From a virus (Duplodnaviria > Heunggongvirae > Uroviricota > Caudoviricetes), in the IMG/VR virus record IMGVR_UViG_2879731240_000003: a DNA stretch of 29,012 nucleotides, one strand, 5' to 3'. The notes under the pieces are model-generated. The model was not told the origin of the DNA. It made no database searches and worked only from the letters and a program-made list of their open reading frames with translations. The position numbers and the translations under genes are program-made. Of this stretch, positions 1 to 2,932 are shown one piece after another (the first letter of the stretch is position 1; each line of letters opens with the position of its first letter).

Positions 1-175
1 ATGGGACGCTGGCTTGCTGGCAGGCTCATGAAAGAGCTGGGGCTGGTCAGCTGTCAGCAGCCGACTCACCGGTATAAACGTGGTGGTCATGAACATGTTG
101 CTATCCCTAACTACCTTGAAAGGCAGTTCGCCGTGACCGAGCCAAATCAGGTGTGGTGCGGTGATGTGACCTATA
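1..175 (+). CDS. IS911-like transposase OrfB, exon-1 portion upstream of the intron (partial at window edge)
   Basis: Frame-1 translation ends ..[11 protein letters not shown] immediately before GTGTG at 176. Confidence 0.8.
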
Positions 176-846
176 GTGTGCCCGGAGTTCAGGGCGGGCA
201 TGGATGCTTAAATGAACCGCGAGTCTGTCTGGAATATTGAACCGGTAACTCACGATGAGAAACCCAACAATCCCACCGGGTGTGACGGTGGAGAACCTGA
301 GCGGCAGTGACCTGCGGCATGCCCGCAGGGTGATGTAACCCGCTGACAACGGGGATTGAGGCGAGATCACTAAGCCGAGATGATCCTCAAGGTTAAGTAC
401 TGAAAGGCTGAAGAACATGAACCCGTTAATCCGCCTCTGTGGGTTGAAAACGTCACCACGGCCTACGTGATCTGACAGGCCGTGCAGGAGGAACTGGCAG
501 TGATACGTAAGCACTGCCGGTCGAAGGTGTTTTGACATGTATGCGAAACACCGGGGCAGCAGCGTCTATCACACTTGCGTTGCTGACTTCTGCCAACTTG
601 CGGCAAGCAAGGATAAAGAGTGCGACGGGCAGCCTCCTCAGTATGCCTGAGTCCAGGCAGGTAAACCGGGGAAGGTCAGCGACGGATGTTAAGGGGGCAT
701 GGCTCCGATGACGCGCTGGCTGGCGGAGCTTCCGTAGTAGTCCGCGATGGGGAAAGCCCATTACATGGCGAAGGGAAGCAGTTTGAATGTGTTTGCGACG
801 TGAATTAACTGACCTAACGAGGTGAAGACCTTTGATAATCAGCGAA

Positions 847-2355
847 ATGCAACGCAAGCTTGCCACATGGGCAGCCACCGATCCGTCCCTACGGATTCAA
901 CGGCTGCTGCGTCTGATAACACAACCAGAATGGCTGGCTGAAGCGGCGCGGATCACGCTTTCATCAAAGGGGGCCCATACCCCCGGCGTTGATGGCGTGA
1001 ACAAAACAATGCTACAGGCCAGACTGGCTGTTGAGCTGCAAATCCTCAGGGATGAATTACTCTCAGGCCACTACCAGCCCTTGCCCGCCAGACGGGTTTA
1101 CATCCCTAAAAGCAACGGCAAACTGCGACCACTGGGTATCCCCGCGTTGCGGGATCGTATTGTTCAGCGGGCCATGCTGATGGCGATGGAGCCGATATGG
1201 GAGAGTGATTTTCATACGCTCTCATATGGCTTCCGGCCTGAGCGCAGTGTCCACCACGCGATCCGCACGGTGAAATTACAGCTCACAGACTGTGGTGAAA
1301 CCCGGGGACGCTGGGTGATTGAAGGCGACCTGTCCAGTTACTTCGACACCGTACATCATCGACTGCTGATGAAGGCTGTACGCCGCAGGATCAGTGACGC
1401 ACGTTTCATGACTCTGCTGTGGAAAACCATCAAGGCGGGACATATCGATGTCGGTCTCTTTCGGGCGGCCAGTGAAGGTGTGCCACAGGGCGGTGTTATA
1501 TCGCCGCTATTATCGAACATCATGCTGAATGAGTTCGATCAATACCTGCATGAGCGCTACCTGAGCGGGAAAGCCAGAAAAGATCGGTGGTACTGGAATA
1601 ACAGTATCCAACGGGGCCGAAGTACGGCGGTCAGAGAAAACTGGCAGTGGAAACCCGCGGTGGCGTACTGCCGCTATGCCGATGATTTTGTCCTCATCGT
1701 CAAAGGCACCAAAGCACAGGCGGAAGCCATCAGGGAGGAGTGTCGGGGTGTGCTCGAAGGCAGTCTGAAACTCAGGCTGAACATGGATAAGACTAAAATC
1801 ACCCATGTTAATGACGGCTTTATCTTTCTGGGGCACAGGATCATTCGCAAACGCAGTCGTTATGGCGAGATGCGAGTGGTCTCAACGATCCCGCAGGAGA
1901 AAGCCAGAAACTTCGCCGCATCGCTGACAGCACTGTTATCAGGCAACTACAGTGAAAGCAAAGTCGATATGGCTGAACAACTCAACCGAAAACTGAAAGG
2001 CTGGGCCATGTTCTATCAGTTCGTTGATTTTAAGGCCAAAGTCTTCAGTTATATCGACCGTGTCGTGTTCTGGAAGCTGGCTCACTGGCTGGCCCGCAAA
2101 TACCGTACAGGTATCGCTTCCCTGATGAGGTGGTGGTGTAAATCACCGAAACCGGGTCAGAGCAAAACGTGGGTTTTATTTGGTAAAACCAATCACGGCA
2201 AGCTCAGCGGCGAAATACTGTACCGGTTGGTGGGGCAAGGCAAGAAGCTGTTCCGCTGGCGGCTACCCGAAGGTAATCCCTATCTGAGGACGGAGACCAG
2301 AAACACGTATACATCGCGCTTTACAGAAGTGGCAATGGCGTTCGCCAGCATTTAA
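847..2355 (+). CDS. Group II intron-encoded protein (reverse transcriptase / maturase); no obvious C-terminal endonuclease domain
   Basis: RT motifs including PLGIP..DRIVQ, PQGGVISPLLSNIMLNEFD and YCRYADDFVLIV (YADD); maturase/X-like region after the RT. ORF track starts at TTG 832; first ATG is 847. Confidence 0.9.
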   Translation: MQRKLATWAATDPSLRIQRLLRLITQPEWLAEAARITLSSKGAHTPGVDGVNKTMLQARLAVELQILRDELLSGHYQPLPARRVYIPKSNGKLRPLGIPALRDRIVQRAMLMAMEPIWESDFHTLSYGFRPERSVHHAIRTVKLQLTDCGETRGRWVIEGDLSSYFDTVHHRLLMKAVRRRISDARFMTLLWKTIKAGHIDVGLFRAASEGVPQGGVISPLLSNIMLNEFDQYLHERYLSGKARKDRWYWNNSIQRGRSTAVRENWQWKPAVAYCRYADDFVLIVKGTKAQAEAIREECRGVLEGSLKLRLNMDKTKITHVNDGFIFLGHRIIRKRSRYGEMRVVSTIPQEKARNFAASLTALLSGNYSESKVDMAEQLNRKLKGWAMFYQFVDFKAKVFSYIDRVVFWKLAHWLARKYRTGIASLMRWWCKSPKPGQSKTWVLFGKTNHGKLSGEILYRLVGQGKKLFRWRLPEGNPYLRTETRNTYTSRFTEVAMAFASI

Positions 2356-2360
2356 ATGGA

Positions 2361-2394
2361 GAGCCGGATGCGCTGAAAGGTGCACGTCCGGTTC
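2361..2394 (+). ncRNA. Group II intron domain V (catalytic hairpin)
   Basis: 34-nt hairpin beginning GAGC (AGC triad) with GAAA-type loop, about 50 nt before the intron 3' end; seen directly in the sequence. Confidence 0.75.
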
Positions 2395-2445
2395 GGGGAG
2401 GAGAGGCAGGGAAATAGTCCGACTACGCCCTGCCTCTTACTCTAC

Positions 2446-2924
2446 TCTGGACGGGTAAGCGCTGGGCGTACCTCGCCGTTGTTCTCGACCTGTTCGCAAG
2501 AAAACCAGTGGGCTGGGCCATGTCGTTCTCGCCGGACAGCAGGCTCACCATGAAAGCGCTGGAAATGGCATGGGAAACCCGTGGTAAGCCCGGCGGGGTG
2601 ATGTTCCACAGCGATCAGGGCAGTCATTATACGAGCAGGCAGTTCCGGCAGTTATTGTGGCGATACCAGATCAGACAGAGTATGAGCCGGCGCGGAAACT
2701 GCTGGGATAACAGCCCAATGGAACGCTTCTTCAGGAGTCTGAAGAACGAATGGATGCCGGTGGTGGGTTACGTAAGCTTCAGCGAGGCAGCTCACGCCAT
2801 AACGGACTATATCGTTGGATATTACAGCGCACTAAGACCGCACGAATATAACGGTGGGTTACCCCCAAACGAATCGGAAAATCGATACTGGAAAAACTCT
2901 AACTCGGTGGCCAGTTTTTGTTGA
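2446..2924 (+). CDS. IS911-like transposase OrfB, exon-2 portion (integrase catalytic core, C-terminal part)
   Basis: Translation [73 protein letters not shown]; stop at 2922..2924. Confidence 0.85.
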
Positions 2925-2932
2925 CCACTTCA

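Follow-up and report, generated by a model that had tools for sequence, protein, structure and literature searches.

Group II intron E.c.I4 / S.f.I1 in an IS911 transposase gene bordering a prophage remnant

How a group II intron came to lie within the transposase gene of an insertion sequence (IS), and what its presence means for that element, are the questions raised by the beginning of a 29,012-nt stretch of viral (Caudoviricetes) DNA, IMG/VR record IMGVR_UViG_2879731240_000003 (hereafter the window, meaning the whole stretch). We consider it very probable that this is the intron E.c.I4 / S.f.I1, of open reading frame (ORF) class A and without an endonuclease (En) domain, which retrohomed into an IS911 copy resident at the border of a lambdoid prophage remnant of Shigella type. 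The features on which this reading is based are listed in Table 1.

Table 1. Positions of the intron, its parts, and the host IS911 in the window
Feature	Position	Strand	Description	Basis
5' exon	1..175	+	interior portion of IS911 orfB, truncated where the window begins	spliced-sequence identity, translation
Complete group II intron E.c.I4 / S.f.I1	176..2445	+	2270 nt, sense orientation within orfB	RF00029 match and filled/empty sites
5' splice-site consensus	176..180	+	GUGUG (GUGYG)	sequence reading
First in-frame stop for a ribosome reading the 5' exon into the unspliced intron	238..240	+	TGA; ORF 1..240	
Candidate EBS1	438..444	+	UGUGGGU; proposed partner, exon -7..-1	inferred; k-mer scan
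Intron-encoded protein	847..2355	+	reverse transcriptase (RT) and maturase (X), without D/En domain; 502 aa from ATG 847	
Domain V	2361..2394	+	34-nt hairpin, AGC triad 2362-2364, GAAA loop	Rfam alignment; fold z = -5.8
Domain VI	2397..2443	+	bulged branch-point A2439, 7 nt from the 3' splice site	fold and Rfam alignment
3' exon	2446..2924	+	rest of IS911 orfB (rve catalytic core); orfB stop codon 2922-2924	
IS911 right terminal inverted repeat	2897..2932	+	element end at 2932, sequence …TTGACCACTTCA	

Because the window starts inside orfB, the 5' part of IS911 (approximately 588 nt, with the left inverted repeat, orfA, and the frameshift site) lies outside it; the left inverted repeat, orfA, and the AAAAAAG frameshift site are all present in L004, an intron-free orthologue of the locus. 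The 5' exon ends with GAT GTG ACC TAT A, which encodes D-V-T-Y followed by the first base of the next codon. When the two exons (1-175 and 2446-2932) were joined in silico, the resulting 662 nt matched, in a single BLAST piece and with 100% identity, the uninterrupted IS911 of many E. coli genomes, where the genes are annotated as 'IS3-like element IS911 family transposase'. The junction 175/2446 reads …GACCTATA / TCTGGACG…, and in translation the frame remains open through to the orfB stop codon, yielding a product with an rve integrase core (Pfam, 1.8e-32) and a score of 248 bits against the NCBIfam model transpos_IS3. An earlier note, made from the letters alone, had described nested mobile elements, with a group II intron in an 'IS911-like' transposase gene and its excision restoring the orfB frame. 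The RF00029 match (below) and the spliced identity bear out the nesting, and the translation, the rve core, and the same identity bear out the restored frame in silico. The term 'IS911-like' named the right family but was too loose, since the host is IS911 itself, of which only the 3' 662 nt lie in the window. An alignment in which the exons fail to rebuild a contiguous IS911 orfB, which the note had named as grounds for giving up the reading, is excluded by these 662 nt, identical in one piece.

The intron extends from G176 (GTGTG) to C2445 (…CTCTAC), and its CUAC end at 2442-2445 agrees with the AY motif of group II 3' boundaries. Neither A175 and C2445 nor G176 and T2446 are the same base, so a shift of either boundary by a single position breaks the identity with IS911. 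The Rfam covariance search proposed as a check for domains V and VI returned RF00029 at 2359-2445 with 64.9 bits (gathering score 40), a match that ended exactly at 2445. The boundaries first placed at 176 and 2445 are therefore confirmed to the nucleotide by the end of this match and by the 100% identity of the spliced sequence to IS911. Raw-sequence reading can place intron boundaries exactly, as this case demonstrates in the manner of a clean positive control. Structure predictions for domains I-III (RNAalifold with three relatives, and minimum free energy [MFE] folds) were rejected as not credible as ribozyme architecture; for domain I, both the MFE and the alifold structures were unreliable.

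The ORF within the intron is intact and contains the YADD motif. An alternative start, TTG at 832, located 7 nt after a GAGG, would extend the protein to 507 aa. The protein matched the Pfam families RVT_1 (1.5e-34) and GIIM (1.3e-10), and scored 340.9 bits against TIGR04416 (cutoff 300). No HNH domain was matched in Pfam, and the C-terminal 80 aa, which contain a single Cys, gave zero Pfam matches even at E<=1, indicating that the protein has no HNH/En domain and agreeing with the earlier description of RT and maturase regions with no visible endonuclease. The identical 502-aa protein occurs on at least 1000 contigs and is annotated as ltrA (WP_001189111.1) in related records.

Comparison with published copies identified it as a well-known mobile intron of E. 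coli and Shigella. It differs at 5 positions in 2270 nt from the E24377A copy (NC_009801 4848623-4850893), which is named E.c.I4-2b in the supplement of Leclercq & Cordaux 2012 (PMC3522654). The intron database assigns the same name at >95% identity to the reference (quoted in PMC3552965), and with these 5 differences the window intron takes the name E.c.I4 / S.f.I1. These introns were described by Dai & Zimmerly 2002, as cited in PMC3522654, and are covered by the Zimmerly database. E.c.I4 and S.f.I1 were placed in ORF class A, without an En domain, by Toro & Martinez-Abarca 2013 (PMC3552965), and copies of E.c.I4 occupy specific positions in the transposases of IS629, IS911, ISEc16, and ISEc31 (Leclercq & Cordaux 2012, PMC3522654). 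The window intron shares with them the RT-X protein lacking En and the homing position in IS3-family transposases, including that of IS911, and a copy on an S. flexneri plasmid is 100% identical to it. Relative to published E.c.I4, the window copy has A rather than G at position 573 and otherwise differs in nothing of substance, except that its host IS911 lies at a prophage edge, where the two reference genomes found are intron-free.

Of 5426 complete E. coli genomes, 1874 carried a near-full-length copy of the intron and 886 the IS911::intron arrangement; plasmid records with a near-full-length copy numbered 1519. An assembly chimera or other artefact was rejected because hundreds of complete genomes share the identical arrangement. 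Such nesting is ordinary and already known: the intron, its class, its En-less protein, and the IS3-family transposases it favours, among them those of IS629 and IS911, have all been published. With the protein already labelled ltrA in the NCBI annotation, the case has little importance as a discovery; it does illustrate nested selfish elements.

Target choice was examined in 120 metagenome loci, which contained 17 distinct 5' flanks. Each of the 17 encodes W..D.TY followed by one further base, and T is invariant at position +1 of the recovered targets. In every case the intron sits between the first and second bases of the codon next after W..D.TY, a motif that includes the first catalytic Asp. 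An IS629-type element also contains an identical intron, and there, too, the frame is restored once the exons are joined. In a k-mer scan that compared all intron 7-mers with all exon offsets, using 16 of the 17 distinct natural 5' flanks, the candidate exon-binding sequence EBS1 was the top scorer, with 95% of cells paired and complete pairing at 11 of the 16 targets. This candidate is promiscuous in the scan because it is G/U-rich, and the G-to-C change that it shows in a more distant Salmonella relative is not compensatory. For exon positions -13..-8, the same scan of 16 flanks gave only G/U-rich, ambiguous candidates (527-531 and 686-690), both of them atypically placed 3' of the EBS1 candidate, and it led to no assignment of EBS2 or EBS3. 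A hairpin loop at 565-577 resembled an EBS loop, and in a Klebsiella relative A573/G and exon position -11 appear to covary, but this loop was rejected, as it cannot pair with -1..-6 and is not general across targets.

The end of IS911 at 2932 abuts a truncated prophage excisionase-like gene, with a DUF1233 ORF at 2899-3096 on the minus strand, and matches to other genomes end at 2932-2935. An intron-bearing IS911 at this prophage junction occurred in none of the complete E. coli genomes, in which the best coverage ends at 2935. The same junction with an uninterrupted, complete IS911 was found in S. flexneri SFBU1023 and ECMA0423. One scan of genome contigs recovered the junction in L004/L005, in intron-free versions only. 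In the intron-free relatives at this junction, 175 of 175 nt are identical to the window on one side, and 3371 nt contain 1 mismatch. At another pair of loci, filled (L001) and empty (L002), 1 nt differs in the 3062 nt outside the intron. The orthologous empty sites in L002 and L004/L005 reveal a precise insertion. Because the junction and exons are identical in intron-free relatives, the simplest history is that the intron entered an IS911 already in place.

The 3-bp target-site duplication of IS911 is absent in the orthologue L004, where the flanks are GGG and GAA, which means that recombination has occurred at this locus. This suggests that the IS911 copy took part in a rearrangement, which leaves its identity as IS911 unaffected. 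It also gives some room to a history in which the intron did not home here, an intron-laden IS911 having been transposed or recombined into the prophage edge, or the relatives having lost the intron precisely. Intron copies do recombine, as an IS629/IS911 chimera joined across the intron in complete genomes demonstrates, and filled/empty pairs could in principle reflect loss instead of gain. However, such a history is at odds with the near-complete identity of the junction and exons in the intron-free relatives, and precise loss would require rare recombination with the cDNA of a spliced mRNA, so we regard it as quite improbable. The two orthologous filled/empty pairs, one of them at this very junction, argue for recent retrohoming over a relic.

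The relic was one of two options left by the earlier note for an intron protein without an endonuclease: an immobile fossil carried passively by IS911. The missing endonuclease domain and the many truncated copies elsewhere could be taken in its favour. E. coli K-12 provides an example in ykfC (CP4-6 prophage), a 'reverse transcriptase domain-containing protein' by annotation, which matches intron nt 1-1764 at 99.7% identity. Unlike the window intron, ykfC is truncated at its 3' end, and having lost the end of the maturase together with domains V and VI, it is a dead remnant. The window copy, by contrast, has an intact ORF with the YADD motif, intact domains V and VI, and an intact branch-point A, copies with 100% identity exist in other replicons and species, and near-identical loci, including intron-free orthologues of this exact one, are polymorphic for the filled or empty state. 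Moreover, absence of En is normal in class A and in several other mobile classes (PMC3552965). The relic option is thus disfavoured, and we judge it very unlikely indeed.

With recent retrohoming as the preferred reading, we infer from the intact motifs and the population patterns that the window copy can splice and move; experimental data on the mobility of class A introns were not found in the searchable literature. The intron would be transcribed as part of the IS911 orfAB message; a promoter and terminator scan of 1-3300 gave results at chance level, and no promoter-like site was located upstream of the intron ORF. The intron protein would then help the ribozyme to excise itself as a lariat branched at A2439, and the resulting RNA-protein particle may reverse-splice into the sense strand of IS3-family transposase genes. 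Since this protein lacks an endonuclease, the primer for cDNA synthesis would probably be a nascent DNA strand at a replication fork, by analogy with RmInt1. In that En-less intron, such priming has reportedly been shown. An exon-binding sequence rich in G and U would accommodate targets that differ by synonymous changes, which would explain the presence of one intron in IS911, IS629, and at least 12 other IS3-family variants. For the intron, an IS would be a safe harbour that is multi-copy, dispensable, and horizontally mobile.

For IS911 itself, the insertion splits the catalytic domain, and precise splicing would restore the orfB frame. Translation of an unspliced mRNA would instead yield a transposase truncated after 21 intron-encoded residues. 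The earlier note had proposed that splicing could gate IS activity, that is, act as a rate-limiting and possibly condition-dependent switch on an active OrfAB transposase. The sense orientation, the exact restoration of orfB upon excision, and the early stop in the unspliced message all fit a switch of this kind, for which Ll.LtrB, an intron that modulates its host mobile element, is a precedent (PMC6003770). The closest analogue points the other way: RmInt1 of Sinorhizobium meliloti is likewise an En-less mobile retroelement in sense orientation in an IS transposase gene (ISRm2011-2), but its in vivo splicing efficiency, measured as exon ligation, is 0.07%, and the transposase is effectively silenced according to the authors (PMC3035460). 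RmInt1 differs in belonging to class D rather than class A and in occupying another IS family, and its splicing and retrohoming have been measured, whereas the steps given here for E.c.I4 are deduced. Ll.LtrB of Lactococcus lactis (class ML/IIA) similarly lies within a gene that another mobile element requires in order to move, the relaxase gene ltrB, but it reduces the expression of that gene constitutively and independently of the stresses tested (PMC6003770). It further differs in encoding an En domain (LtrA, 599 aa, which aligns with the window protein over the RT region only) and in residing in a conjugative element rather than an IS. In addition, one intron occupies at least 17 IS3-family target variants and also truncated, dead IS911 copies (such as L001, cut by IS30), which argues for selfish homing over co-adapted regulation. 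A regulatory gate is therefore improbable in our estimation. Given the 0.07% splicing of RmInt1 and the lowered relaxase expression caused by Ll.LtrB, attenuation is likelier than a tuned gate, and the net effect on IS911 would most likely be reduced transposase output rather than a regulated switch.

Shigella genomes have been shaped by hundreds of IS copies, and the effect of E.c.I4 on IS3-family transposition is a question of weight for this genus. A broader proposal, which we consider unlikely and offer tentatively, is that E.c.I4 serves as a family-wide brake on, and shuffler of, IS3-family elements through three effects. The G/U-rich exon-binding site would allow the intron to occupy the catalytic-Asp motif of many IS3-family transposases; unspliced mRNAs would produce transposase fragments that bind DNA, are catalytically dead, and inhibit transposition in trans; and recombination or trans-splicing between intron copies would generate hybrid transposases. 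Complete genomes do contain IS629/IS911 chimeras of this kind, joined across the intron. If the proposal were true, the activity of IS3-family elements in Shigella and E. coli would depend on how efficiently the intron splices.

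The earlier note had read nucleotides 1–2932 as nested mobile elements, a group II intron inside an IS911-like transposase gene, with intron boundaries placed to the nucleotide at 176 and 2445, and both points were borne out by the Rfam, protein-domain and spliced-exon analyses. In an Rfam scan of the whole window, the covariance model of group II intron domains V/VI, proposed there as a check, matched at 2359–2445 on the plus strand (RF00029, 64.9 bits; gathering score, 40), ended exactly at 2445, and was the only non-tRNA match. At the opposite end, GTGTG at 176–180 agrees with the 5′ consensus GUGYG. 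The fold of 2356–2445 had a z-score of −5.8 against shuffled sequences. Because the bases differ at the edges (A175 versus C2445 and G176 versus T2446), the boundaries cannot slide and lie exactly at 176 and 2445. When 1–175 and 2446–2932 were spliced in silico, the resulting 662 nt translated as an open frame to the orfB stop at 2922–2924, and the product contained the rve integrase core and matched an IS3-family transposase equivalog. Megablast searches of complete E. coli genomes with this sequence returned one-piece, full-length, 100% identical matches in many of them, annotated as 'IS3-like element IS911 family transposase'. Excision therefore restores the IS911 OrfB frame, as had been claimed, and the alignment, which might have shown that the exons do not form a contiguous orfB, showed that they rebuild IS911. 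Position 2932 is the last of the IS911 right inverted repeat (other genomes match up to 2932–2935), and the window starts inside orfB, with the first ~588 nt of IS911 lying outside it.

Features of the intron and of the prophage remnant
Feature	Coordinates	Strand	Remarks
Domain V hairpin, 34 nt	2361–2394	+	fold of 2356–2445; AGC at 2362–2364, GAAA loop
Domain VI helix	2397–2443	+	fold of 2356–2445; one bulged A at 2439, 7 nt from 3′ end
Intron ORF	832 (TTG) or 847 (ATG) to 2355	+	RVT_1, GIIM, TIGR04416
DUF1233 excisionase gene	2899–3096	minus	cut by IS911
SPFH-domain gene			prophage remnant
IS600 copy	6305–7461	minus	prophage remnant
RusA, then antiterminator Q			prophage remnant
Four clustered prophage tRNAs	8887–9196		Met-CAT, Arg-TCT, Thr-TGT, Gly-TCC; after Q
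IS110-family transposase gene	9896–11092	minus	after tRNAs
Tail genes			after IS110-family transposase
IpaH-type NEL E3 ligase	26413–28164	minus	LRR_TTSS + NEL domain; type III effector; far end of remnant

The first reading of the intron protein, reverse transcriptase (RT) and maturase regions without an endonuclease domain, was also confirmed. Pfam identified RVT_1 (1.5e-34) and the maturase domain GIIM (1.3e-10), and the NCBIfam equivalog of group II RT/maturases, TIGR04416, scored 340.9 bits, above its cutoff of 300. No HNH or other endonuclease family matched the protein in the Pfam/NCBIfam search; its last 80 residues, with one cysteine, remained without a Pfam match when the threshold was relaxed to E ≤ 1, and the solved LtrA protein aligned to it over the RT region only. 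Within 821–849, the annotated ATG at 847 lies 22 nt past the only GAGG, whereas the TTG at 832 lies 7 nt past it; a TTG start adds five residues (507 versus 502 aa), and the 507-aa form appears in some database entries.

Sequence identity shows the intron to be E.c.I4, an element already published. It shows 5 differences in 2270 nt from NC_009801 4848623–4850893, which is E.c.I4-2b in the supplement of Leclercq & Cordaux 2012 (PMC3522654). According to that paper, E.c.I4 copies occupy specific positions within the transposases of IS629, IS911, ISEc16 and ISEc31. E.c.I4 and the Shigella intron S.f.I1, 99% identical to it, belong to ORF class A, among the endonuclease-less (En-less) classes (Toro & Martinez-Abarca 2013, PMC3552965). 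All testable features of E.c.I4 / S.f.I1 were found in the window element, which is this already known intron in one of its documented homes. Near-full-length copies occurred in 1874 of 5426 complete E. coli genomes, at up to 20 places per genome, and in 1519 plasmid records from Escherichia, Klebsiella, Salmonella, Enterobacter, and other genera; the IS911::intron arrangement itself was seen in 886 complete genomes. At least 1000 contigs encode the identical 502-aa protein, under the name 'MULTISPECIES: group II intron reverse transcriptase/maturase', and ykfC of E. coli K-12 is a 3′-truncated copy (nt 1–1764, 99.7% identity; e.g., NZ_CP009273.1 267902–269665). Position 573 is A in the window and G in the E24377A and AR_0017 intron copies, and falls within a robustly predicted hairpin loop of domain I (565–577, 11–13 nt).

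Two pairs of filled and empty sites bear on the movement of the intron. At the first, a chromosomal locus (gene order: YagK/YfjJ, IS30 fragment, IS911 fragment, and restriction endonuclease), strain AR_0017 has the intron and strain 2013C-4991 lacks it; apart from the intron, the two strains differ there by one mismatch in 3062 nt. The sequence at the empty site is …GACCTATA followed, at the insertion point, by TCTGGACG…. Since this IS911 was already cut by IS30, the intron also enters dead IS copies. The second is the window's own IS911/prophage junction (2921–2960), found in S. flexneri SFBU1023 and in a record titled E. coli ECMA0423 (intron-free loci L004, 6263–7540, and L005), where IS911 is complete and uninterrupted (IRL, orfA, AAAAAAG slippery site, and orfB). 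The 3-bp target duplication is absent there (flanks GGG versus GAA), suggesting that a deletion or recombination at the prophage edge involved this IS911. The window intron is 100% identical to copies elsewhere. Retrohoming and a relic had been left as alternatives; the two pairs and the identical copies argue for recent retrohoming and against a relic.

The analysis shows that the ribozyme core and the protein are intact, that the insertion is precise and in the sense strand, that excision restores orfB, and that the target motif is fixed. The intron would be transcribed within the IS911 orfAB message, and the promoter scan found no promoter-like site above chance upstream of the intron ORF. 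Its protein would assist lariat splicing, and the particle would reverse-splice into IS3-family genes, where, without an endonuclease, nascent DNA at replication forks may serve as the primer. Such fork priming is established for the En-less RmInt1, but not for class A. RmInt1 in ISRm2011-2 works alike but differs in intron class and IS family, whereas Ll.LtrB in a relaxase gene resembles the window intron but has an endonuclease.

Scanning metagenome contigs with intron nucleotides 1–32 yielded 120 loci, at which the 3′ exon base +1 was always T. All 17 distinct 5′ flanks among them encode W-x-x-D-x-T-Y plus one base; in DDE transposases of the IS3 family, this motif surrounds the first catalytic Asp. 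On an S. flexneri plasmid, an intron of identical sequence lies within an IS629-type element, where the joined exons also restore the frame. When all intron 7-mers in 176–735 were compared with all exon offsets in 16 of the 17 flanks, the top pairing joined UGUGGGU (438–444) to exon positions −7 to −1, with 95% of cells paired and 11 of 16 sites paired fully, in a scan whose design favours G/U-rich words. Because IBS1 must lie at these positions, 438–444 is a reasonable, moderately supported candidate for EBS1, and its G/U richness would explain the tolerated synonymous third-position variation. A more distant Salmonella relative carries a non-compensatory change at a candidate EBS1 position, and scanning the intron gave no placement for EBS2 or EBS3.

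IS600, a second IS3-family element 4 kb away, carries the motif as WVADLTY/V (GACCTGACGTATG/TTGCC, the slash marking the site between 6766 and 6765) and has no intron. As targets with the same G at −5 are occupied elsewhere, the IS600 site seems to be available for homing but unoccupied, in agreement with the literature, in which most sites in Shigella are described as empty. Some intron copies, among the metagenome loci and in E. coli, lie between exons of two types, the 5′ exon being of IS629 type and the 3′ exon of IS911 type. When an IS629/IS911 chimera was built artificially, it matched complete E. coli genomes as a single piece (100% coverage, 99.6% identity), which shows that these chimeras are real and not mere assembly artefacts; recombination between intron copies therefore shuffles IS3-family elements. 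The PMC3522654 supplement notes one case, in strain 55989.

That splicing gates IS911 activity is logically possible, and a ribosome on unspliced RNA would halt at 238–240, producing a transposase that lacks most of its catalytic core. The nearest analogues with measurements, however, point towards attenuation rather than a gate: for RmInt1 in the ISRm2011-2 transposase gene, exon ligation was 0.07% and its authors considered the transposase effectively shut off (PMC3035460), and Ll.LtrB constitutively lowered relaxase expression and conjugation (PMC6003770). The occupation of many IS3-family variants and of dead IS copies is likewise more in keeping with a selfish safe-harbour strategy than with a co-adapted switch.

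Apart from the intron-bearing IS911, the window consists of a decayed lambdoid prophage of the Shigella ipaH-island type. Lysis and head modules, which would be expected between Q and the tail genes, seem to be missing from it. By BLAST coordinates only, the intron-free relatives have an extra ~780 nt at window position 5808–5816, with those 9 nt on both sides, probably an IS1-type insertion (about 768 bp, 9-bp duplication) absent from the window. The IpaH-type effector points to a host chromosome of Shigella or enteroinvasive E. coli.
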